Origin: an uncultured bacterium
GTDB lineage: Bacteria; Krumholzibacteriota; Krumholzibacteriia; LZORAL124-64-63
Direction: 5' to 3'
Assembly (NCBI GenBank): GCA_963732385.1
Contig: CAVSZB010000007.1
Span: 1-64,000, forward strand
DNA length: 64,000 nucleotides
Program-made: the position numbers and the translations under genes
The notes under the pieces: model-generated
The model's input: only the letters and a program-made list of their open reading frames with translations
What the model was told of the DNA's origin: nothing
The model's database searches: none
Part shown: positions 21,185-52,750 of the stretch, in pieces
How the letters are laid out: every line of letters starts with the position of its first letter
Numbering within the stretch: position 1 is the stretch's first letter

Positions 21185-24100
21185 TCACGACCGTTTGGGC
21201 CGCACCTTTTCCGTGTGGCACGGGACACAGAGGCGGCCGCCCGGATCATCGCGCAGCATCTTTTCGAACGCGGAGCCGTGCGGATCGTGGCAACTCACGC
21301 AGGTGAGCGGCTGCTGCGTGCGCGGGTCGATCACCTTCTCGCCCATGGGGTGATTCGCGTGCTCCTTGAAACTGTGGCAGCCGACGCAGGTGGCCTGCAG
21401 GCGGATCGCCAACTGGCCTGCGGGCGGGCTCACGTGGGGATCGTGGCAGGTGGTGCATCCCTTGCCCCCCTGCTCGGGGTGGCGGTGGGCGGCGTCGTTG
21501 GCGGTGGTCGCCTGCTCTGCGTGGCAGCGGCCGCACACCTGTGCCTGCCGGGCCGGCAAAAGCGGCGACGTGGGGGCGGTGTGCGGATTGTGACATGGCG
21601 TGCAGGACTTCTCGCCGGCCAGCGGACCGTGTGGCCGGTCGGTCTTGAGGTCCTGAGCCAGACCGGGGTGACAGGAGAGGCAGAGGGTCGATTCCGTGCC
21701 GCGCAGCGCGGCGCTGCCGGCCGGGTGGCAGGCGGCGCAGTTCCCCTGCGCGTACGGCTGGTGGACGTTGGCGAACGCCAGACCGGCCGTGGCCGAGGCG
21801 TGGGGCGCGTGGCACGACCGGCAGTCGGCGTCGGCCAGCGCAAAGCCGCGGTGTTTGGCGGTCAGCGCGGGGGAGCCGAGCTGGTGGCATTTGCCGCACA
21901 GCTCGCGCGGCGGGGCGACCAGCCCGCCGGTCTGGGTCGTGCCATGGGCGTCGTGGCATTCGCTGCAGCGCCCCTGCGCGAACGGGGCGTGCACGTGGAG
22001 ACGCCGCTGTTCGGCCTGCAGGTCGACGTGGCAGGTGAAGCAGAGCTTGCCTGGAGGCTGGCGCAGGAGCGCCGGCTGGGGCGATCCGTGGGGATCGTGG
22101 CAGGCATCGCACTTCCCCTCCCGCACCGGGGTGTGGGCGGTGCGGGTGTCGGGATAGAGGGAGGCGAGGTCGTGACAGGTGGCGCAGACGTCCGCGACAG
22201 GTCCCGCCGGGAGCAGCGCCTTGCCGGTCGCGGCGTGCGGATTGTGGCAGCCGAGACAGTCGCCGCCGGCGAACGGCGCGTGCTGCCGGGCGGCCGGCAG
22301 ATCGGCCGGGACGAGGCTGTCGTGGCACTGCAGGCAGAGTTCCTTCGGCGTGGTGATCGTGCCGGGTCCCTGGTGGCAGGTATCGCAGGCGCGCTCGGCG
22401 AAGCCGGGATGCGCGTTGGCGCGCAGCAGCGACGGCTGGGTGGCGTGGTGCGGTTCGTGGCAGGTCGTGCAGTTCACGCTGGTCCCGTCCCGGCCGAGGT
22501 GTTTGGCCTGGAAGCCGGCGCTCTTCTCGTCGTGGCACTGCAGGCAGAGGGCAGGCGCGGGGGTGCGCAGCATGCCGGCCCCTTCGCCGCCGTGCGGTAG
22601 ATGGCAGGTGAGACAGCCGTCCTGCGCGGGAGAATGCACGGATTTCGCAGCGGACGTGTCGACGATCTCCTGATGACAGACCGTGCAGACCAGCGGATCG
22701 CTCGCAGCCAGCAGGTGTGGCTGGTCGGAGCGATGGGCGTCGTGGCAGGCGGCGCAGTTGCTGTCACGGACCGGCGCGTGCGCCCGCCAGGCGACCGCCC
22801 CGGACGGGGTGGCCGCGACATCGTCGTGGCAGGTGGCGCAGATCGCCTTCGGATCCTCCTTCAGCAGTCCGGTTCGTTCCCCGCCGTGCGGCAGATGGCA
22901 GTCGAGGCATTGGCCGTCCGCCGTGGGGGCGTGCACGCTGCCCCCCTTGGGCGCCTGGGTGATGTCAGCGTGGCAACCGGAGCAGAGGGGGCCCGTCGCG
23001 CTTTTCAGCAGCGCCGGCTGTCCCGCAACGTGCGGCGCGTGGCAGGCGAGACATTCGCCGCGCTGCGCCGGCGCGTGGCTCGACGCCTTGACGATTTCGA
23101 GACGCACGGAGGCGTGGCACCCGAGGCAGAGGGAACCGGCGCCCTGCTTGAGCAGGCTGGCGTCGTTGCCGCCGTGCGGATCGTGGCAGACCGTGCACGC
23201 CTGCTTGACGAACGGCGCATGCCTGGTCGTGGCGGCGGCGCTCTGCTGCGCCAGCGGCTGGTGGCAGGAGAGACAGAGCTCGGCGGTGGCCTGTTTCAGC
23301 AGCGCCGGCTGCCCCGCCGCGTGCGGATCGTGGCAGCTGGAGCAGTGGCCCTCCCGCGCCGGCTTGTGCACCACCTGGCGGTTGAAGGGGCCGTTGTCAT
23401 GGCAGGTGGTGCAGACCGCCTGCTCGCTCCCTTTCAACAGGCCGGCGCGCGCGCTGCCGTGCGGATCGTGGCAATCGAGACAGGCGCCCTCGGCCGCCGG
23501 CGGGTGCTTGACCGCTCCTGCGGCGCCGACCTCGGCGTGACAGCCGGCGCACAGGCCGGCGGTGTCGGACACCGGCGCGATTTTGCCGGCGGCGTCGACG
23601 GTGTGGCAGCCGCTGCAGTCCATCGCGGCGACGGGGCCATGCAGCGACGCCAGCAGCAGGGACGGCTGATCGGAACTGTGGGGATCGTGGCAGGAGGAAC
23701 AGTTGGCGGTGGCGACGTCGAGCCCCTTGTGCTGCTTCGCCAGCGCGGCGCCCCCCTTGTGACAGGAGAGGCAGAGCGCGGTCGGCTCCTGCTTCAGCAG
23801 GGCCGGCTGCGTGGACCCGTGCGGGTCGTGGCAGGCCTTGCAGCCGCCGTCTTTGAGCGGCTTGTGCACCTTCGCGCGGGTGAAGGCTGCGCGGTCGTGG
23901 CAGGTGAAGCAGGAGGCGTCGCCAGCGGCGTTGAGCAGCGCGGACTGGCCGGAGCCGTGAGGGGCGTGGCAGGCGGTGCAGCCGCCGGTGCGCAGTGGCT
24001 GGTGCAGCTTCGTGCCTTCGGGGAAGGTCGCCAACGCCTTGTGGCAGCCGGTGCAGAGGGCCGGGCCCTGCGCCTGCAGCACGAGGCTGCCCACGATGCC

Positions 24101-24310
24101 GTGGGGCTTGTGGCACCCTTCGCACTGGCCGGAGCGCAACGGTTCGTGGGCGTGGGGCGCCTTCATGGCCCGTTTCATCTCCGCGTGGCACTCCACGCAA
24201 CTCTTCGACTTGAACGGACCGGCGGCGCGAGCCGGTGCCGGCGCGACCGTCAAAAGGGTCAGGCCCAGGGCGGCGAAGCAGATGACGAGGGGCTGGCTCC
24301 ACCGTGTCAT
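21185..24310 (-). CDS. Giant multiheme cytochrome c, 42 CXXCH, doubled-CXXCH repeat family
   Basis: 1041 aa, signal peptide, repeat HxP-x5-CxxCHxPH-x11-CxxCH; manual count of 42 motifs. Confidence 0.93.
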   Translation of the reverse strand: MTRWSQPLVICFAALGLTLLTVAPAPARAAGPFKSKSCVECHAEMKRAMKAPHAHEPLRSGQCEGCHKPHGIVGSLVLQAQGPALCTGCHKALATFPEGTKLHQPLRTGGCTACHAPHGSGQSALLNAAGDASCFTCHDRAAFTRAKVHKPLKDGGCKACHDPHGSTQPALLKQEPTALCLSCHKGGAALAKQHKGLDVATANCSSCHDPHSSDQPSLLLASLHGPVAAMDCSGCHTVDAAGKIAPVSDTAGLCAGCHAEVGAAGAVKHPPAAEGACLDCHDPHGSARAGLLKGSEQAVCTTCHDNGPFNRQVVHKPAREGHCSSCHDPHAAGQPALLKQATAELCLSCHQPLAQQSAAATTRHAPFVKQACTVCHDPHGGNDASLLKQGAGSLCLGCHASVRLEIVKASSHAPAQRGECLACHAPHVAGQPALLKSATGPLCSGCHADITQAPKGGSVHAPTADGQCLDCHLPHGGERTGLLKEDPKAICATCHDDVAATPSGAVAWRAHAPVRDSNCAACHDAHRSDQPHLLAASDPLVCTVCHQEIVDTSAAKSVHSPAQDGCLTCHLPHGGEGAGMLRTPAPALCLQCHDEKSAGFQAKHLGRDGTSVNCTTCHEPHHATQPSLLRANAHPGFAERACDTCHQGPGTITTPKELCLQCHDSLVPADLPAARQHAPFAGGDCLGCHNPHAATGKALLPAGPVADVCATCHDLASLYPDTRTAHTPVREGKCDACHDPHGSPQPALLRQPPGKLCFTCHVDLQAEQRRLHVHAPFAQGRCSECHDAHGTTQTGGLVAPPRELCGKCHQLGSPALTAKHRGFALADADCRSCHAPHASATAGLAFANVHQPYAQGNCAACHPAGSAALRGTESTLCLSCHPGLAQDLKTDRPHGPLAGEKSCTPCHNPHTAPTSPLLPARQAQVCGRCHAEQATTANDAAHRHPEQGGKGCTTCHDPHVSPPAGQLAIRLQATCVGCHSFKEHANHPMGEKVIDPRTQQPLTCVSCHDPHGSAFEKMLRDDPGGRLCVPCHTEKVRPKRS

Positions 24311-27338: not shown

Positions 27339-29516
27339 TCAGAAAGTCCAGTTTACCCTGGCGTTGCTGCTCAACGGCCAGCTCAGCTCGCCACGCTGCT
27401 CGAAACGGGTCTTCTCGAGGCCCGCCTCGATGGTCAGCCGGGCCCGTGGCCGCCACATCGCCGTAAAGCCGGCGCCGCGCTGGGCGAGGTCGGCCCGCGT
27501 ATCGCGGAAATCGTTCAGGCTGAACTGGAACTCCACGCTGCCTCCGCCGAGCGGCGTCCAGGAGGCGGAGTGGCGGAACAGCCAGTCGTCGCTTTCACGC
27601 ACCTGGTAGCGCACCTGGCTGCTGAACGACAGCAGCGGCCACGGCGACCAGCGCACCAGGCTTTCGGATTCGTTGAATGGGGTGAAGCCGGCGCCGGCCG
27701 CTGCGTCGACCCAGCGACGGCTGTGCCGCAGGTCGATCCCGAGGTTCACCCGCGGCGCGGCCCGCACGAGTCCGGTTACGACCCAGGCGCGCGAGTCGCC
27801 GCCGTAGGCTTCATCCCGGACCCGACCGTACGTGATGCGTTCGCTGACCGTAAGGGCCGGCAGGATCTCGTGGTTCACCTTCAGGGCATACGTGTCCGAA
27901 ACCCGTGGCTGCACGCGACTGCGGTCATCCTGCCGGATCCACGACAGGCCGGTGGCCAGGCGGGTGTTGTTGCCGCGCGATACGTTCAGGCCCCAGAGGC
28001 GCGTGTCGGTGTCGGCGCGCGAGGCGCTGCGCAGGCGCTGGGTCTCCCAGGAGGCGCCGGCGCTCCAGAGTTGACGGGTCCAGCGCAACTGGCTGGCCTG
28101 CCCGGTGCTGCTGAGATTGTTGGCGTCGTTGTCGAAGCGACGTTCGTCAAGATGGAGAGCGTAGCGGAACTGCCAGTCGCGTGCGACCTGGTAGACGAGG
28201 TCGGTATCGAGCCGGTGGCGCACGGTCCGTTCGTGTGTCTCGGCGCGCGTGGCCTCCTGTCGGTCGTACAGCTCCAGCTCGGTCACGTAAAGATCCGGCA
28301 GGGTGGGGCCGTCCTTCTCGTTGACCAGCTTGAAGAAGCGCGCCCGGACCGGTTGTCCGCCCGGAGGCACGGGGAAGGCGATCTCCCAGCCGCGCAGCGA
28401 GGCGTCCCATTCCCGCCAGGTGATCGTGGACGCGCTGTCGGGCAGTTCGCTCCAGAGCCGGCCCTCGGGGTCGTCGCTCACGAAGAGTCGCCAGCGGATG
28501 AGACGGTTGAACACCACGAGGCGGTCGACGTAGAGCAGCGCGAGGCCCAACTCCTCGGTGGCGCCGAAATCGTAGCGCAGATTGCGGGCGTCTCCGCCGA
28601 ACTCGTGCCCGACCGTGGCGGCGTCGCCGAGGTTGACCGTGGTCGGCGTCGCCCGGTCATTGTCGTAGAGCGCGCTCACCTGGATGGTCGATGGTTCGAG
28701 CGGGTCCTCGATCAGGGGGGTGTCGTCGATCCGGAACCCACCGGTCAGGGGGATGAGCAGATTGCGTCCTCCGGTGAGCGGGCCGGTCAGGGTCTGCGTG
28801 AAGAGGCGCGTCTGGGCGTCCAACGACAGCCGGACGCGGGCGCCCAGGGCGAAGGAGCCACGGTAGTCGAGGGCATGCGTGCGGAAGAGATTCCGGTTGT
28901 CGAGCGTGCGGTCGCGGTGGTCGTTCTCGGTATAGGTGTAGGCCAGATCGCTTCCCGCCGGGAGAGCCAGCCGCGCCCCGGCGCTGCCGGTGCGTTCGCG
29001 GGTGCGCGAGGCGTCCACGCCGGAGTCGTCGCGACGATCGAGTTCGGCGCCGAACCAGCGCAGGCGCAGCCGCAGCCGGCCTATCTCGTACTGCGACCAT
29101 CCGCCATATTCGAACCGTTCGTCACGCCGCCCCGCCAGCCCCCCGCCGAAATAGTCGCGCCGGTAGCTCTCGCCGCTCAGGCCGAGGCGGAGGGTGCCGC
29201 GGCGCAGCGTCAGATTCACGTTCGGCTGCTGGGTGATCGTCTCGTAGTCCGACAGCTCCCCGGCGAAATCGCTCCAGTTCGCCTCCCGCAGCGCGCCGTA
29301 GCGGATCTGCAGATAGAGAGCGCGCGAGAGGTCGATGCGCTGGTCGAGCCGGCCCTCGGACTGGACGCTGCGGGTGGTGTAGGCGCTCGTCCCCGCCCGC
29401 CCCTCCTGCCGGAAGCCGCGCAGGTCGGCCCAGCCGTCGAGCGCGCGGACCGGGGCGGACGCCAGCAGCACGATGATGAGCGTCCAGAGCAGAGGCAGCG
29501 GCCCGGGTCGAGCCAC
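27339..29516 (-). CDS. Large outer-membrane beta-barrel with inserted soluble domain (GTG 29516 preferred over ATG 29651)
   Basis: Signal peptide LLWTLIIVLLASAPVRA, amphipathic strands, C-terminal NARVNWTF. Confidence 0.75.
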   Translation of the reverse strand: MARPGPLPLLWTLIIVLLASAPVRALDGWADLRGFRQEGRAGTSAYTTRSVQSEGRLDQRIDLSRALYLQIRYGALREANWSDFAGELSDYETITQQPNVNLTLRRGTLRLGLSGESYRRDYFGGGLAGRRDERFEYGGWSQYEIGRLRLRLRWFGAELDRRDDSGVDASRTRERTGSAGARLALPAGSDLAYTYTENDHRDRTLDNRNLFRTHALDYRGSFALGARVRLSLDAQTRLFTQTLTGPLTGGRNLLIPLTGGFRIDDTPLIEDPLEPSTIQVSALYDNDRATPTTVNLGDAATVGHEFGGDARNLRYDFGATEELGLALLYVDRLVVFNRLIRWRLFVSDDPEGRLWSELPDSASTITWREWDASLRGWEIAFPVPPGGQPVRARFFKLVNEKDGPTLPDLYVTELELYDRQEATRAETHERTVRHRLDTDLVYQVARDWQFRYALHLDERRFDNDANNLSSTGQASQLRWTRQLWSAGASWETQRLRSASRADTDTRLWGLNVSRGNNTRLATGLSWIRQDDRSRVQPRVSDTYALKVNHEILPALTVSERITYGRVRDEAYGGDSRAWVVTGLVRAAPRVNLGIDLRHSRRWVDAAAGAGFTPFNESESLVRWSPWPLLSFSSQVRYQVRESDDWLFRHSASWTPLGGGSVEFQFSLNDFRDTRADLAQRGAGFTAMWRPRARLTIEAGLEKTRFEQRGELSWPLSSNARVNWTF

Positions 29517-29528
29517 TCCGGGGGATAC

Positions 29529-29688
29529 AAAAAAACACCCCGCGAGGCGTGGGGTCTGTCTCGGGTGGGAAGCGACGCAGCCCGGCGAGGGAAGCAGGCC
29601 TCCCGGCCAGACCCGATCTGCGGCGCGCATGGCCCGCGAAATCACCTGCATGGCGCTGTGATATTAACAAATCAAGGCTTTGCAAGCA
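29529..29688 (-). promoter_or_regulatory. Promoter and 5' leader with terminator/antiterminator pairing
   Basis: TTGCTT-17nt-TAATAT with extended TG; hairpin ACCCCACG-cct-CGCGGGGT followed by GTTTTTTT just before the first gene. Confidence 0.5.
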
Positions 29689-29736
29689 ATTGAAAAACCA
29701 GGGAAACGGCTCGCGGTTTCAATTGCGGGAGGAAAC

Positions 29737-29812
29737 TGGCATCCCCAACGGGATTCGAACCCGTGTTGCCGCCGTGAAAGGGCAGTGTCCTAGGCCTCTA
29801 GACGATGGGGAC
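29737..29812 (-). tRNA. tRNA-Glu (TTC)
   Basis: GTCCCCATCGTCTAGAGGCCTAGGAC...CTTTCAC...GGTTCGAATCC...GCCA. Confidence 0.96.
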
Positions 29813-30166
29813 GCCGAAGAGGCCCCCAAGCTAACCTCCGGTCGCCTCTTCTGTCAACGCGCGCGGTCACGAAGTTCGCGCGGCCGCTTCCCGGAGGAGC
29901 ACGACCGTCTGCGCGCCAGGGTGCCGGAGTTGAAGCGGCTGGTGTCGCTGACGACCACCGCATCGCTGGCCAGCTTCGCCGCATGTACAGGCCGGCAATG
30001 TAGAAAGCTGGACTTGACGGCGGCGGCTGTCGAGTTGATTGTGACGCCCGCGGTCCGCCCGCGCGGAGCGGGGCGGGGAGAAAGCCGTTGACAGCGTTTG
30101 GCCGTTCCGGGACGATAACGCGTCTGGTGGCCGGAACAGAACCTTAGCTCATGCAGGGGAGGATCC

Positions 30167-30337
30167 ATGGCCGACATGATCATCAGCAAGACCAAGACGA
30201 AGGAACTTGTAACCAAGTGCAATGTGTCCGGCGAGTTTTACGAGGGGTTGGACAAGAAGGTGCGTGAGTTGATCGCCGCCGCCGAGCAGCGCGCGATTGA
30301 CAACGGTCGCAAGACTGTTCGCCCGTACGACCTGTAG
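30167..30337 (+). CDS. Bacterial histone-fold protein, 56 aa
   Basis: MADMIISKTKTKELVTKCNVSGEFYEGLDKKVRELIAAAEQRAIDNGRKTVRPYDL; RBS GGGGAGG; RKTVxxxD histone-fold motif. Confidence 0.88.
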   Translation: MADMIISKTKTKELVTKCNVSGEFYEGLDKKVRELIAAAEQRAIDNGRKTVRPYDL

Positions 30338-30388
30338 GCGAGTTCGCGTCGGACCAGGGGTCCGCTGCGTTGCTGGCGCCACGAATCC

Positions 30389-30420
30389 GGGAGGCCCCCT
30401 TGGGGGCCTCCCTTGTTTTT
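30389..30420 (+). terminator. Rho-independent terminator
   Basis: GGGAGGCCCC-cttg-GGGGCCTCCC-TTGTTTTT. Confidence 0.85.
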
Positions 30421-30597
30421 GTGGCGGGGCGGTGACGGTTGTGTCTGAGCGCGTCAGCCGGGGGCGACGGCCGCGGGGCGCGCAGGTCGGCGGCGTGGGG
30501 CGCCGGCGGTTCGTGCGCGCGTCAACGGCGGGCGGCGCGGCGCTTGCTGACCTCGTCCCGCCCGTCAACGGGCGGAAGGGGCGGGGAGGCTGGAGTG

Positions 30598-32196
30598 GTG
30601 ACGCGCATTCGCAGCGGCGCGGTCGAAGGCATCGACGGCTACGGCGTCACGGTCGAAGTGGATGCCGGGCGGGGCCTGCCGGCCTTCCACATCGTCGGTC
30701 TGCCCAATGCGGCGGTTCGCGAGAGTCGCGAGCGGGTGTTGGCGGCGCTGCGCAACAGCGGCCTGCCGCTGCCTCCCGGGCGCGTCACCGTCAATCTGGC
30801 CCCCGCTGATGTGCGGAAGGAGGGGGCCGCCTTCGATCTGGCGATCGCGGTCGGCGTCACCGAAGCGTGCGAGGATCGCGGCGCCCACGCCGGCGCTCAC
30901 GGTGACGCGGTGCTGTTGGGGGAACTGTCCCTCGACGGCGCGTTACGACCCGTGCGTGGCCTGCTGGCGATCGTGCTGGCCGCGGCCGCGCGTGGCGATC
31001 GCCGTTTCGTGGTGCCGGCGACGCAGGCGTGGGAGGCGCGCCTGGTGAACGGGGTGGAAGTTCTTGGTGCGACGACGCTGGCGGAGGTGCTGAACTGGCG
31101 ACGGCGCGGCACTGTGCCGGCCGGGGTCGCGGCGCGACCGCCCGCCGTGGTGGGCTCCGGGGGAGGGGATGAGGCGGCGTTCTGGCTCGGCCTTGCCGGT
31201 CAGCCCGAGGCGCAGCGGGCGGCGTTGATCGCCGCAGCCGGCCGGCACAATCTCCTGCTGGTGGGGCCGCCCGGAACCGGCAAGACCCGACTCGCCCGCG
31301 CCATTCGGGGGTTGTTGCCGCCGTTGGCGACCGCGGAGGCGCTCGAGGTCGCCCGCATCCACGGTGCGGCCGGCACGTTGCGCGGTGCCGCCCTTTCGCG
31401 GCGACGCCCGCTGCGTGCGCCGCACCACACCATCACGCGCGCGGGTCTGCTCGGCGGCGGATCCCCGCTGCGCCCCGGCGAGGCGACGCTCGCCCACCGG
31501 GGGATGCTGTTCCTCGACGAACTGTCGGAGTTCGCGCCGGCGGTGCTCGACGCCCTGCGCGAACCGCTCGAAGAGGGGCGCGTGGCGGTGGCACGGGGCA
31601 GTGGTGCGCGCAGTTTCCCGGCCGCGTTTCTCCTGGTCGCCGCGATGAACCCGTGTCGCTGCGGCTACCTGGGCAGTCTTCGGCGTCCCTGCCGGTGCGC
31701 GCCGTCGGCCGTGGCGCGCCATCGCGCGCGCATCTCGGGGCCGTTGCTGGATCGCGTGGACCTGTTCGTGGAAATGACCGAACCGCCGGCGGGACTGTTG
31801 TCCGGCTCGCCCGGGACGGTGGCGGAGGAGGGCGCGGCGACCGACGCGAACCTGGCGCGCTGGCGGGCGCTGCGAGGGCAGGTGCGGGAAGCCTGGTCGC
31901 GGCTGGGCGCGCAGTTGCCGCCTGGCTGTGAGCGGCGTCTGGATCCGCGGGGATTCGCCGTGGCGGCCGGCCTCGACCGCGAGGCGCGCGATTGTCTGGA
32001 GGAGGCGCGTCTGAACCTGTCGCTCTCCGTGCGTGGCGCCCTGCGCTGCGCACGGGTGGCGCGGACGATCGCGGTCCTGCGCGGCGCCACGAGCACCGGA
32101 CGGGAGGAGGTGGCGGAAGCCCTGGGCTACCGTCTGGAGTCGCTCGCCGGCTGGGCGCCAGGCGAAGAAGCGGATGCGGGAATTGCCCTGGGGTAG
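30598..32196 (+). CDS. comM: YifB/ComM Mg-chelatase-like AAA+ ATPase
   Basis: IVGLPNAAVRESRERV, VNLAPADVRKEG, GPPGTGKT, RAPHH, LFLDE, AAMNPCRCG, ISGPLLDR. Confidence 0.92.
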   Translation: MTRIRSGAVEGIDGYGVTVEVDAGRGLPAFHIVGLPNAAVRESRERVLAALRNSGLPLPPGRVTVNLAPADVRKEGAAFDLAIAVGVTEACEDRGAHAGAHGDAVLLGELSLDGALRPVRGLLAIVLAAAARGDRRFVVPATQAWEARLVNGVEVLGATTLAEVLNWRRRGTVPAGVAARPPAVVGSGGGDEAAFWLGLAGQPEAQRAALIAAAGRHNLLLVGPPGTGKTRLARAIRGLLPPLATAEALEVARIHGAAGTLRGAALSRRRPLRAPHHTITRAGLLGGGSPLRPGEATLAHRGMLFLDELSEFAPAVLDALREPLEEGRVAVARGSGARSFPAAFLLVAAMNPCRCGYLGSLRRPCRCAPSAVARHRARISGPLLDRVDLFVEMTEPPAGLLSGSPGTVAEEGAATDANLARWRALRGQVREAWSRLGAQLPPGCERRLDPRGFAVAAGLDREARDCLEEARLNLSLSVRGALRCARVARTIAVLRGATSTGREEVAEALGYRLESLAGWAPGEEADAGIALG

Positions 32197-32198
32197 CG

Positions 32199-33110
32199 CT
32201 AGAAGGTGGCGGTGAAGCCGATGCCCCAGCTCAACACGCCGATATCATGCGCTTCGAACTCCGTCACCGTGCTCATGTCTCCACTGACAGGCAACTGTAA
32301 GATCGGGATGAGGGTCGTGCCCTCGTCCTGTTCCATCCAGGTTTCGGCCGGATCGAAACGAATCCGTGAGTGGTTGTAAAGCGCCTCGACCCGGATGCTG
32401 ATCAGGTCGTCGGCGACAAACCGGAACCCGGCGCCTCCCGCGAGCGTCCAGGCGGAGGTGGATCCCTGCGTATAGTTCGAGTTGAGGCTGTAATAGGAGC
32501 GCCCGATCCCGCCGATCAGGAAGGGATGCAGGCGTCCGCTGGCGTCGCCCGTGATGTCGAACGGGTAGATGATGCCGTTTAGCCCCGAGTTCATCGTGAT
32601 GCAGGAGCGCTGCTCGGCGTCGAATTCGCCGAGCGCGACCCCATAGATCCGCTCGTTGTTCGCCGGGTCCGTGGAGATGGAGACGGTGTTGACGATGTTC
32701 GCCTTGTACTCCGAGACGGAAATTCCCCAGACCCCTTCGATAGTGAGCCATTTCCTGAAGCCATAGCCGAGGCGCAGAACCGGGTTGAAGGCGGAATCGC
32801 CCTGCAGGACAATGTCGCCGAAGTATAGATTTTCGGTCGAGATGCGATAGATGATGGGGTTGGTAGACGAAAGCAAAGGGGTGCCCAGGTTGAGGTAGCC
32901 GATGCTGAAGGTCGCTTCGAGCCTGCCCTGCCGGAGGCCCGGCGTCCAGGATGGCTTTGCGGCCTCCCGGGCCTTCGCCCGCGCGGTCGTGTCTGCCGCG
33001 GAGGTATGCTTCAGGTTGAAGGTCTTTTCGGGCGCTGGTGTCTGGGCAATGGCAACGCCACAGGTCAACACCAGCACCGTAAGCGCGGCAAGCAAGCTTC
33101 GCTGCGACAT
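32199..33110 (-). CDS. Outer-membrane beta-barrel protein (OmpA/OmpW-like membrane domain)
   Basis: Signal peptide, HPFLIGGIG, GGAGFRF, IRVE, C-terminal WGIGFTATF. Confidence 0.75.
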   Translation of the reverse strand: MSQRSLLAALTVLVLTCGVAIAQTPAPEKTFNLKHTSAADTTARAKAREAAKPSWTPGLRQGRLEATFSIGYLNLGTPLLSSTNPIIYRISTENLYFGDIVLQGDSAFNPVLRLGYGFRKWLTIEGVWGISVSEYKANIVNTVSISTDPANNERIYGVALGEFDAEQRSCITMNSGLNGIIYPFDITGDASGRLHPFLIGGIGRSYYSLNSNYTQGSTSAWTLAGGAGFRFVADDLISIRVEALYNHSRIRFDPAETWMEQDEGTTLIPILQLPVSGDMSTVTEFEAHDIGVLSWGIGFTATF

Positions 33111-33363
33111 TGATCGGCTCCCGTCAGGCTCTGTCGCGTTCCCCGGCTTGGCCCCGCAAAGCGCTCGGGCGCGCCCGTCGGCGCGGCGCAGGAACAGTGG
33201 GGATGAACGAAACACGGCCCTCCCGTGGGGAATAGGCGGGCCAACTCTGTACAATGTCAGGTGCTGGCGTGCCGGTGTCAACTGCAAAGCTGATCGGTTG
33301 CCCCACCGTGTGCATCGGCCGTATATTCGCTCGAGTCGCATCCCTGACACGGAAAGGCCGCTC

Positions 33364-36187
33364 ATGAGCATCGACCCGCCCGCGTCGCGCGCACGCCGCT
33401 TCCACCGCCACGGCAGGAATAGTGAAAATTGCGGTGGCTGGCGCGGTGGCGCCTGGCTTCTGCCGCTGCTGTTGGGTGTGATGGCCCCGGCGGCCGGCGG
33501 TGCGATTCCCCTCAACTTCCCTGGCCAGGTCACCGTGCCGGTTTCGGCGCCCACCTCTACGGTGGTGGTGCTGGACATCAACGGCGATGGAATCCTCGAT
33601 CTGATCGTCGGTCTGGAGGATGGTCGCATCTCCGTGCTGCGCGGCTTGGGTTCGGGGCACTTCGTGGAGTCGTGGGGCTATGCGAGTCTTGGGGGCGGCC
33701 GCGTAGTCGATCTGCTGCTTGCCGCGCTGCACCCCGGGGACCCGCTCTCTCTGGTCGCCACCACGGTCAATCCCGACCAGCTCGCCATCTACGACTTCGT
33801 CGACGGAACGGTGTCTTTGAGCCTGCGGGTGTTGCTGCCGCTGCCGGAGGATCCCGCGGGGCTCGCGTCGGGTCTCGTGGCGCCGGACGGTTCGCTCCGT
33901 CTGGTGGTGACGTTGCCGGGCGTGGACCGCTGGCTGATCGCGGGCGAACAGGAGGGGGCCTGGCAGGTGCTGCAGGAGATCGACACCGGGGACCGTCCGG
34001 TCGACGCGGTGGTCATCGATCTGGAGGGCGACGGCCAGCCGGAAGTCGTCACGGCCGACAACGGCGTGCTCTCGCGCGGTCTTTCCATTCATCGCGCCGG
34101 CCTCGACGGTCGTTACAGTGTGGCCGCGCAGCTGGCCACGCCGGGCGCTCCGTCGGCCCTGTTCGCGTTCGACGCGCAGGGCGATGCGCGGCCCGAGCTT
34201 TTCGTGACCTATGCCGATTCTGCGCGGGTGACCTGCTATGCGGCGGAGGGGGCCGTGTTGGTGCCGGTAGTGAATCTGCCGGCGCCGTTGCCGGCGAGCG
34301 GTCTTCACGTGGCGCGATTCGACGGTGGAGAACTGGGCCTGTGGACCTGGAGCGGCACGCGGGGGGTCGCCAACTACTTCCGCAACGCCGGTACGGGGTG
34401 GGTCTTCGCGGAAACCTATTTTGCCGGCGGGCAGGCGGTCGACGGCCGGCTTACCGACCTGAACGGGGATTCCTACCCCGATCTCCTGATCGCCAACGGC
34501 TCGTCCGGGAACCTGGGGCTGCTTTTCGGCAACAACGTGCACCGTTTCCGCGCCTATCTCGCCACGCCGCTCCCGTCGCGACCGGCCGACGGTCGTCTGT
34601 ACGACGAAGATGGCGACGGACGTCTGGACTACGCGGTGACCTGCCAGGGGAGCCGTTCGGTGGAGGTCCTGCACGGTGACGGGCGGGGCCATCTGCTCCG
34701 CGATGTTCCCCCCGTAACGCTCGGTCAGGCTCCCGCGGGGCTGGCCGTGCTGCACGCCGACGCGGATCTTCGGCCTGACCTCGCGGTCACCTTGTTCGCC
34801 ATCGACCAGGCGGTGGTGTTGCGACGCCTGCCCGATGGCGGCTACCTCGAGACCGCGCGCTTCGCGACCGGAGATTTCCCGTTCCGGGTCGTGGCCGGCG
34901 ACCTCGACGGTGACGGCGCGGACGACCTGGTCGTCGCCAACCTGCTGTCGTGGAACTTCACTGTCGCCTGGGGAGCGGGCGACGGCACTTTTCCCGCCAC
35001 GGGCACCCTGTCGCCCCTGAGCATGATCGAGGATGTGGCGCTGGCCGATCTGAACGGGGACGGACTGCCTGATATCGTCGCCGTCAATGGTCAGTCGGCG
35101 CTTTTCACCATGCTCAATATTGGTGGGCGCGCTTTCGACCCCGCCACGGTTCTATTCGCTGCCGGACCAGCCAGCCACGCTCGCCACCGGCGATCTTGAC
35201 GGTGACGGTGATGCGGACGTGGTCGTCGGGCTGCGGACAGGGGCGGCGGTCACGATCCTCGAGAACCACGGCAACGGCTTTCTCTCCACACGCGTGGCCG
35301 CGTGGCCGCTCGGCGGACGGCCGGGTGCTCTGGCGGTGGCCGACCTGGACCTCGACGGACTGCGGGACATCGTGGTAGCGCTGCCGGGACTGCAGGAAAT
35401 CGGGCTGCTGGTCAATAAGGGTGGCTGGGTCTGGTTCGAGCCCCTCAAGTGGGTCTCGGCGCTGACGCCGGCGGCGTTTGGCGTCGGTGATCTGAACGAC
35501 GATGGCATCCCGGACATCGTGCAGCTGGATCTCACGCTGGAATTGGCCGTCATCATGCTGAACGTCGAGCCCAATCCGGTGCCGGTGACCCCGGTTCCGC
35601 TGACGATCGCCTGCGCCGGAGAGCTCCTGGAGATCCGTGCCTGTCCCCCCGGGGGGGAGGGGTGGACAGTCGAGGCGGTCGGCGTTACCGGTCCGGTCGA
35701 TCTGGCGGTGGACGGCGTGGCCCGTTACGGAGAACTCATGCGCCTGGGCGACGGGTGGCTGCTCCGCCTGACCGCGGCGGACTGGGCCGCGGCCGGCCTG
35801 GCGGCCGGCTCGCCGGTGGAAGTGCGCCTGAGGGATCGCGGTCCGGGCGCCGCCGTGATCGCGGTTACCGTGCCCGCCGGCTGTCCGGCCGCCGCCGGGA
35901 CGGGGGAGGTGGCGGATCTGGTCCTTCTGGAGGCCCGCCCCAATCCGTTCAATCCGAGTGTGGAAGCGCGTTTCCGTCTGCCGCGCGCGGGGCTGGTCCG
36001 GGGGACGATCCACGACGCGGCCGGGCGACTGGTGGCGGATCTCGGGGAACGCTGGCTGGTGGCGGGAGAGCATACGTTGCGCTGGGATGGTCGGGGCGCG
36101 GACGGCCCGGCGGGGGCCGGTCTCTACCTGCTCACGGTTGCCGCCGAGGGTCGCGCCGTCAGCCGGAAGATGACATTGCTCAAGTGA
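33364..36187 (+). CDS. Secreted FG-GAP/VCBS repeat protein with C-terminal FlgD-Ig/T9SS-CTD-like domain; one frameshift near 35140
   Basis: Many DxNGDGxxDL repeats in two consecutive ORFs; tail PNPFNP...IHDAAGRLV...WDG...GLYLL...KMTLLK. Confidence 0.85.
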
Positions 36188-47162: not shown

Positions 47163-47253
47163 GGAGGGCTAGACCTAACTGGCAAGGCAGCGGTCTTGAA
47201 AACCGCCGGGGGGGAGACCTCCCATGAGGGTTCGAATCCCTCGCCCTCCGCCA
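47163..47253 (+). tRNA. tRNA-Ser (TGA)
   Basis: GCGGT-CTTGAAA-ACCGC anticodon arm, long variable arm, GGTTCGAATCC, CCA. Confidence 0.92.
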
Positions 47254-47265
47254 GGAAACCGATCG

Positions 47266-47358
<93 letters not shown>

Positions 47359-47372
47359 CCGCACGACACGGG

Positions 47373-47449
47373 GCGCCCATAGCTCAACTGGATAGAGCAT
47401 CTGGCTACGGACCAGAAGGTTGGGGGTTCGAATCCCTCTGGGCGTACCA
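47373..47449 (+). tRNA. tRNA-Arg (ACG)
   Basis: TCTGG-CTACGGA-CCAGA arm, GGTTCGAATCC, CCA. Confidence 0.95.
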
Positions 47450-52414: not shown

Positions 52415-52502
<88 letters not shown>

Positions 52503-52519
52503 CCTCTTGGAAAAACCGT

Positions 52520-52609
52520 GGAGAGGTGCCGGAGCGGTTGAACGGGGCGGTCTCGAAAACCGTTGAGCACGCAAGTGCTCCCAGGGTTCGAATCCCTGCC
52601 TCTCCGCCA
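52520..52609 (+). tRNA. tRNA-Ser (CGA)
   Basis: GCGGT-CTCGAAA-ACCGT arm, long variable arm, CCA. Confidence 0.94.
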
Positions 52610-52673
52610 GTTTTTCCGGCCCGGCCGGCGGGCCGCCGCAAGGCGCAAGACCGGCGCGACTCGATGTCAGGGT

Positions 52674-52750
52674 GGGGATGTAGCTCAGCTTGGGAGAGCG
52701 CCTCGTTCGCAACGAGGAGGTCGTCGGTTCGAGCCCGATCATCTCCACCA
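52674..52750 (+). tRNA. tRNA-Ala (CGC)
   Basis: GGGGATG acceptor with G3:U70, CCTCG-TTCGCAA-CGAGG arm, ACCA. Confidence 0.94.

Follow-up and report, generated by a model that had tools for sequence, protein, structure and literature searches.

The 64,000-nucleotide stretch of DNA analysed here (the window), from an uncultured bacterium of the Krumholzibacteriota, carries a 56-codon gene whose product, P0001, is a genuine, lineage-conserved bacterial face-to-face (FtF) histone; FtF histones as a class are already known. Our preferred reading, which we regard as likely, is that P0001 is a tailless FtF alpha3 histone forming a ring of two homodimers that would wrap about 50–60 bp of DNA and pack the chromosome beside HU/IHF. 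The wrapping, abundance and essentiality of the protein we infer, wrapping by analogy with solved relatives. The gene and its surroundings comprise the following features:

29737–29812, minus strand: tRNA-Glu(TTC), a conserved neighbour
29823–30000, minus strand: remnant of an M20 peptidase gene (3' end plus a 73-bp internal piece)
30005–30033, minus strand: divergent promoter-like site for the M20 peptidase (-35 at 30033–30028, 17-nt spacer, -10 at 30010–30005)
30014–30042, plus strand: predicted promoter-like element P1 (TTGACG, 17 nt, GATTGT)
30088–30116, plus strand: predicted promoter-like element P2 (TTGACA, 17 nt, GACGAT)
30158–30162, plus strand: Shine-Dalgarno sequence GGAGG, 4 nt 5' of the ATG
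30167–30337, plus strand: histone gene P0001 (ATG start, 56 codons, tailless FtF (alpha3) histone)
30389–30422, plus strand: intrinsic terminator (10-bp stem at 30389–30412, 4-nt loop, T-rich tail)
30592–32196, plus strand: gene for a ComM/YifB-type Mg-chelatase-like ATPase, a conserved downstream neighbour behind the terminator

P0001 has a mass of 6.3 kDa and a pI of 8.85, and both an NVSGEF loop and a C-terminal RxTxxxxD motif are present. Translation most likely starts at M1; some relatives begin at the residue equivalent to M4 (position 30176). With 56 amino acids the product falls under a 60-amino-acid cut-off, and spurious minus-strand ORFs overlap the gene. A word-index search with an E limit of 0.001 returned 138 homologues, almost all of them 53–56 amino acids long, and 447 stretches in a species-level genome collection encode a relative, the best 80 of which were examined. 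Compared with these 80 loci, P0001 shows a median pN/pS of 0.26 and a maximum of 0.50 (80/80; median pN 0.14 and pS 0.57, uncorrected). Given the homologues and the purifying selection across all 80 fetched loci, P0001 is a real gene. The stop position is the same in 78 of the best 80 relatives (one is cut by a contig end, one reads through), and relatives from the same set have a similarly purine-rich Shine-Dalgarno sequence. A stand-alone gene with a histone-fold layout and a strong Shine-Dalgarno sequence, as claimed in a preliminary description of this DNA, is upheld by the ORF, its homologues, selection and the fold match described below. We consider it highly improbable that the ORF is spurious or encodes a histone-fold protein without a DNA role. 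The length of the overlapping minus-strand ORFs, a Pfam score below the cut-off and the lack of an NCBIfam match for P0001 could be taken that way, but the low pN/pS ratio, the conservation of Shine-Dalgarno sequence, stop position and terminator across the best 80 of 447 loci, and the conserved basic DNA-contact residues all speak against it.

The single-chain model of P0001 (pLDDT 84, pTM 0.59) contains predicted helices at residues 8–14 and 22–45 and a single turn at 53–55, the chain ending with L56. The shortening of alpha3 to a single turn is what membership in the alpha3 histone superfamily requires (3–4 residues). Helix 22–45 aligns without gaps with alpha2 of HLp, HTkC and HBb; alpha2 of HLp is described as one turn shorter than that of HMfB (PMC12701072). 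Searched as a single query, P0001 matched the sequences of the solved structures HTkC (E 7.6e-5), HLp (7.2e-3) and HBb/Bd0055 (0.067). A profile built from P0001 and 86 hand-picked members of the 120 listed homologues (87 sequences) gave 2.8e-13, 6e-7 and 2.5e-4 for the same targets, and HMfA/B reached only E 0.55–0.7. A Foldseek comparison with Bd0055, proposed in the preliminary description, was run, and the alpha3 histones HTkC, HLp and HBb fill its top nine rows (TM 0.83–0.89, rmsd 1.0–1.3 Å, E 0.006–0.12), with TM 0.86–0.89 and rmsd 1.0–1.2 Å for the folds of HTkC and HLp. A wide fold search yielded Z 7.6–7.8 for these three alpha3 histones (rmsd 1.1–1.2, 53–54 residues aligned) and 5.6 or less for every other histone fold. 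That the Foldseek E-values exceed 0.001 and the Z-scores stay under 8 is due to the shortness of P0001.

Fold scores fail to distinguish alpha3 subfamilies (FtF versus HBb), whereas individual residues do. In PMC11390915, a predicted ring tetramer together with six residues of D4GZE0 from H. volcanii (K11, R41, N45, R47, T49 and D54) defines FtF histones, and loss of the FtF Arg and Asn defines the bacterial dimer histones. The equivalent residues of P0001 are K12, R42, N46, R48, T50 and D55; the last five are invariant in 87/87 aligned sequences, and K12 is conserved in at least 90% of them. K12 aligns with K11 of HTkC and K17 of HLp, and R42 with R45 of HTkC; R42, N46, R48 and D55 correspond to R49, N53, R55 and D62 of HLp. 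By contrast, HBb/Bd0055 carries Ser and Asp at the positions of R42 and N46. Because it combines R42 and N46 with a single histone fold, P0001 is an FtF histone and neither a Bd0055-type dimer nor a DUF1931 pseudodimer. Accordingly, among the likenesses put forward in the preliminary description, that to FtF histones held, whereas those to the Bd0055 type (Ser and Asp at the R42 and N46 sites) and to DUF1931 did not. PF09123 (DUF1931) matches P0001 with 19 bits at a cut-off of 21.8 and covers 34 of 138 positions, and the pseudodimer was ruled out on this ground and on that of the single 56-residue fold. True DUF1931 histones are reported to be double folds without DNA-binding residues (PMC12701072), even though NCBI applies this label to homologues of P0001. 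A nucleosomal HMfB-type histone was likewise rejected, given that P0001 is without a full alpha3 of about 10 residues, has the above profile E-value of 0.55–0.7 and no match to NF043032. In NCBIfam, three of four proteins searched, P0001 among them, had no match, and one weak archaeal-histone match lay below the cut-off.

Modelling of the tetramer, also suggested in the preliminary description, gave a score of 0.86 for four copies of P0001, compared with 0.00 for the best of three controls. Among proteins solved as pairs, 20 of 30 attained this mark, as did 1 of 23 solved as single chains; both counts apply only roughly to four copies and an author-made alignment. Contact agreement among the four-copy runs was 100% and partner pLDDT was 91. 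The model places contacts with a third copy at residues 41–42, 45–46, 48 and 54–55 (expected error under 8 Å), that is, at FtF residues between the dimers; contacts were listed for one copy only, and a closed ring is no more than implied. Since similar complexes (HTkC and HLp) are already solved, the score is to be read as likeness to them and not as binding, and the dimer interface may dominate it. C18, at the start of loop L1, is conserved in at least 90% of the 87 aligned sequences and is predicted in the four-copy model to pack against partner residues 43–44 and 50–51.

In the solved archaeal tetramer of HTkC, an Arg-to-C-terminus salt bridge holds the dimers together, and the R45A variant drops to a dimer (bioRxiv 10.64898/2025.12.06.692711). 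The chain of P0001 stops one residue past D55, matching the requirement of this bridge. We judge it quite unlikely that P0001 acts as a Bd0055/HBb-like dimer with an HU-like mode of bending or coating DNA and forms no stable ring. Such a dimer would be in line with the HBb fold match, which equals the FtF matches (TM 0.83–0.89, Z 7.8), with the RKT motif that P0001 shares with bacterial dimers, and with the absence of a minor-groove arginine. However, R42 and N46 are invariant here, whereas dimers are defined by losing their equivalents (PMC11390915) and HBb indeed has S and D in their place; the model predicts inter-dimer contacts at these two residues, and profile E-values favour HTkC by nine orders. 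The Bd0055-type dimer class was rejected on the presence of the FtF Arg and Asn and on the predicted third-copy contacts. The RKT form, which P0001 has by virtue of K49, is linked in PMC11390915 to nucleosomal and dimer histones; HTkC shares it.

On the preferred model of a ring tetramer, the alpha2 helices of two chains would cross to give a homodimer, and two dimers would meet via R42, N46, R48 and the C-terminal residues 54–56. By analogy with HTkC and HLp, R42 may pair with the partner's carboxyl group at the C-terminus, closing the ring and blocking growth into a hypernucleosome, and K8, K10, K12, R48, K49, T50 and R52 may hold the DNA backbone round the rim. About 50–60 bp would be wrapped in this way without sequence preference, and P0001 would pack the chromosome as one protein alongside HU/IHF. 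HTkC wraps DNA (bioRxiv 10.64898/2025.12.06.692711) and HLp wraps about 60 bp (PMC12701072). Ten DNA-contact residues are named for HTkC (bioRxiv 10.64898/2025.12.06.692711), seven of which are identical in P0001; the remaining three are changed (S8 to Thr, Y55 to Arg, and the minor-groove R22 to Asn, N19). The net charge of P0001 is +2 (11 K/R, 9 D/E), and that of its relatives over residues 4–56 ranges from +1 to +7, being positive in 80/80 of the best 80 of 447.

A tetramer could also serve mainly to bridge two duplexes, or act as a minor, condition-specific modulator while HU/IHF do the bulk of packing. In HLp crystals, one tetramer bridges two 30-bp duplexes (PMC12701072); P0001 has a low net charge, HU/IHF genes were found in 201/201 genomes of the phylum, and the -10 elements of both promoter-like sites begin with G, as in a minority of this genome's TTGACA sites with nAnnnT at 17 nt (16 of 81). 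Against this, simulations of HLp move from bridging to wrapping (PMC12701072), HTkC wraps (bioRxiv 10.64898/2025.12.06.692711), the gene is kept in 79 of 86 genomes of its family, its strong Shine-Dalgarno sequence and own terminator fit a constitutive gene, and its codon use leans, weakly, toward that of ribosomal-protein genes. On balance a mainly bridging or minor role appears rather unlikely to us, and we favour the wrapping ring. With four HU/IHF-family genes in its own genome, P0001 need not be the main packer.

HTkC of Thermococcus kodakarensis (PDB 9F2C) is the best solved sequence match. Like P0001 it is tailless, has R45 in place of R42 and ends one residue beyond the Asp, and its fold superimposes with TM 0.88 and rmsd 1.0 Å. 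At 35–37% identity, the two differ in the alpha1-L1 region, which is about three residues shorter in P0001, and in R22 and Glu of HTkC where P0001 has N19 and N46; moreover, the host of P0001 is a bacterium with HU/IHF in whose genome a nucleosomal histone was not found. HLp of Leptospira perolatii (PDB 9QT0–9QT2) is, like P0001, a bacterial single-fold FtF histone (TM 0.88–0.89), but is 36–37% identical, bears an N-terminal tail and lies in another gene neighbourhood. Leptospira is without HU (PMC12701072), unlike the genomes of the P0001 lineage. Bd0055/HBb of Bdellovibrio bacteriovorus shares the alpha3 fold (TM 0.83–0.89) and the RKTV motif, yet is 28–31% identical, is without equivalents of R42 and N46 and binds as a dimer. 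As judged by sequence, P0001 is closer to haloarchaeal FtF histones of the HVO_0196/D4GZE0 type, with 41–54% full-length identity to plasmid paralogues (compared in place of D4GZE0), than to HLp or HTkC. Haloarchaeal FtF histones have the same size and the NV...FY.LD pattern in common with P0001 but are acidic, whereas P0001 is basic, as are its relatives (pI 8.1–10.1). Uncharacterised singlets of Planctomycetes and 'Proteobacteria TMED72' in Table S1 of PMC10627809 belong to the same subfamily (IISK..TK, CNV.G.FY.ALD); they come from other phyla and several have Lys-rich tails. Over its residues 3–56, P0001 shares 63% identity with library protein P0128, which by eye differs at two positions from the row for Planctomycetes UBA1135.

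Transcription of the histone gene is likely to be monocistronic, given the divergent gene upstream and the hairpin downstream. The mRNA would start at one or two sigma70-type promoters and end at the hairpin. The preliminary description had assigned the gene a promoter with TTGACA at 30088. This element, P2, is present and is plausible as a promoter from the spacing of such sites in this genome; its -10 is weak (3/6 consensus), which is why a consensus promoter scan of 29000–31500 returned 0 sites, and it recurs in 25 of the best 80 of 447 relatives (including 5 of 8 without P1) as against 71 of 80 for P1. Of the 432 TTGACA sites in the genome of origin, 81 are followed by nAnnnT at a spacing of exactly 17 nt; the count is 11–38 at spacings of 15, 16, 18, 19 and 20, and the expectation from composition is about 2.4%. 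Of the 71 relatives with P1, 51 are without P2 by pattern. P1 occurs at 71/71 loci with the divergent peptidase and at 0/8 without it, one locus being too short, so the peptidase may account for part of its conservation. At the first base of the peptidase-facing -10, the plus strand reads G in the window and A in 70 of 72 loci, while the elements facing the histone remain intact. This single case of decay on one side and retention on the other suggests that P1 works for the histone gene. The compact pair of predicted, overlapping and divergent sigma70-type promoters at 30005–30042 is nearly invariant across 72 loci, and the base that follows the -10 on the histone side is G throughout. A transcription-factor palindrome at P1 was considered and set aside in favour of back-to-back promoters, given the 17-nt spacing on both strands; a factor site there is possible. 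The 5' leader gave no folding signal (z -0.67 and 0.29), and no RNA element is claimed for this reason.

The perfect terminator noted in the preliminary description is borne out by a stem of 10 perfect pairs, followed by a T-rich tail broken by two G. The hairpin has a free energy of -24.5 kcal/mol, a stability equalled by none of 200 shuffles (z -3.45). A similar one, counted without a shuffle control, occurs at 66 of the 77 loci, the window included, whose downstream DNA is long enough. Behind it, a ComM/YifB match was counted by eye in 72 of the best 80 of 447 relatives, and seven of the eight misses have under 250 nt of downstream sequence. Upstream, the M20 peptidase sits between tRNA-Glu and the histone gene in 71 of these 80. 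Compared with loci L036 and L037, it has been reduced in the window by two deletions of about 750 and 565 bp (about 1.3 kb in total), which reflect either real loss or an assembly error. A search of the same genome found other M20 genes and no close copy of the deleted one.

The codon score of P0001 (0.095) was reached by 0.1% of 1774 background segments pre-filtered for high GC3. Ribosomal-protein genes barely separate from this background (median 0.009 versus -0.022, sd 0.03), the HU/IHF genes lie close to it, and the L037 orthologue reaches 0.006; the score was not taken to demonstrate high expression. None of the 21 sequencing runs listed contained half of the words of the stretch; the best share was 0.23, RNA runs had 0.04–0.14, and such small shares count neither for expression nor for habitat.

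Within the phylum, 132 of 201 genomes have a match to P0001 (85 of 125 in the high-quality subset), a non-match not being equivalent to absence. Matches are frequent in the family of the host (f1, 79/86) and in families f3 (6/7), f5 (19/23), f6 (8/9) and f8 (11/12), and rare in f2 (1/12), f4 (7/42), f7 (0/8) and f9 (0/1). As f2, f4 and f7 are mostly without a match, the histone is dispensable at the class level. The genome of origin has one match to P0001 and, among its HU/IHF-family genes, two canonical ones besides a near-identical divergent pair 15 kb apart (G000:C5:227325-227609 and C5:242486-242770, minus strand). Named homologues and loci belong mostly to Ca. Krumholzibacteriia/Krumholzibacteriota and in part to Eisenbacteria, many having vague or other submitter labels; these relatives place the host in Ca. 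Krumholzibacteriota.

Tails vary within the group. The best 80 of 447 loci are all tailless, whereas all ten loci of f3, f5 and f8 sampled among 20 fetched regions (nine rows and a second f8 copy) have short Lys-rich N-tails; in the same regions, f4, f2 and one second copy from f1 are divergent forms. Second paralogues in f6 (L119, L125 and L126) have a long Lys/Ala/Arg-rich N-tail and form a separate tree branch. FtF histones are described as commonly tailed in bacteria and rarely so in archaea (PMC11390915), and most bacterial singlets as being without long tails (PMC10627809).

In a quick-search, unrooted tree of 189 rows and 54 columns (7 of 186 branches with support of 95 or more), which left out HTkC, HLp, HBb and the sequences of published tables, the bacterial subfamily comprises 72 rows (support 93) and the group in which three haloarchaeal proteins are labelled comprises 32 (support 91). 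The two share a branch of support 81, which is weak and gives no direction, and no claim on a donor or on the direction of transfer was drawn from it. Family labels on nine of the tree loci are our own assignment. Among plasmid records, 81 match P0001, and every row among the matches listed is haloarchaeal. The 189 pattern matches in viral contigs include no relative of P0001, and the phage records searched gave no match.

Bacterial FtF histones have been named for Spirochaetota, Planctomycetota, Bdellovibrionota and Myxococcota (PMC11390915, PMC12701072), a histone fold is reported for 1.86% of 18,343 bacterial genomes (PMC10627809), and HLp and HTkC are given as the only characterised bacterial and archaeal FtF histones, respectively (bioRxiv 10.64898/2025.12.06.692711). 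Searches of the open full-text literature returned nothing for Krumholzibacteri(ota) with histone, and two unrelated records for Latescibacter with histone, bacteria and nucleoid. Among the rows shown in the supplement of PMC10627809, Krumholzibacteriota occur only as screened genomes; searches of the supplements of two papers found no mention of the phylum, and the main supplement of PMC11390915, which holds the distribution figures, may list it. In NCBI and JGI, homologues already bear the label DUF1931 or histone H3/H4. Our analysis adds an FtF lineage with strong, chromosomal and syntenic retention that is unnamed in the histone papers searched. As HU/IHF are kept here, unlike in Leptospira, the lineage is relevant to the question whether FtF histones of bacteria take over from classical nucleoid proteins or add to them. 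P0001 lends itself to comparison, since tails vary within one class and it is close to the FtF histones of haloarchaea. It offers no new mechanism, and its host is apparently known from metagenome assemblies only.

It is tempting to speculate, albeit with considerable doubt, that in much of a bacterial class a tailless, haloarchaeal-type FtF histone forms bead-like chromatin alongside a full set of HU/IHF. If so, the tailless form, the short Lys tail and the long-tailed second paralogue would be a natural series for testing the roles of bacterial tails. P0001 would also provide a basic substitute, usable at low salt, for the acidic FtF histone of haloarchaea, the proposed maker of the unexplained 50–60 bp particles of Halobacteria, and might perhaps cause HTkC-like hypercompaction, which is absent in HLp.

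Some further observations concern other proteins and the remainder of the window. A profile search of the full library for longer fused forms yielded tandem double FtF-like histones of about 120 amino acids with two folds, each mostly carrying the R..N.R.T....D signature (P0126, P0130, P0138, P0140, P0151, P0154, P0164, P0165, P0168, P0175, P0179, P0185, P0190 and P0195). Positions 21185–24310 (minus strand) encode a 1041-amino-acid multiheme cytochrome with 22 paired CXXCH repeats, whose neighbours up to 29651 are a SurA/PPIase-like gene, a probable lipoprotein gene and a 770-amino-acid ORF without a Pfam match; this region is possibly a porin-cytochrome electron-transfer cluster. An FG-GAP repeat protein at 32902–36187 (plus strand) is spread over two overlapping ORFs (32902–35199 and 35087–36187), probably as a result of a frameshift; locus L036 also has frameshift-like breaks in neighbouring genes. 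Two tRNA clusters lie on the plus strand, one at 47163–47449 with Ser(TGA), Ser(GCT) and Arg(ACG), the other at 52415–52750 with Ser(GGA), Ser(CGA) and Ala(CGC).
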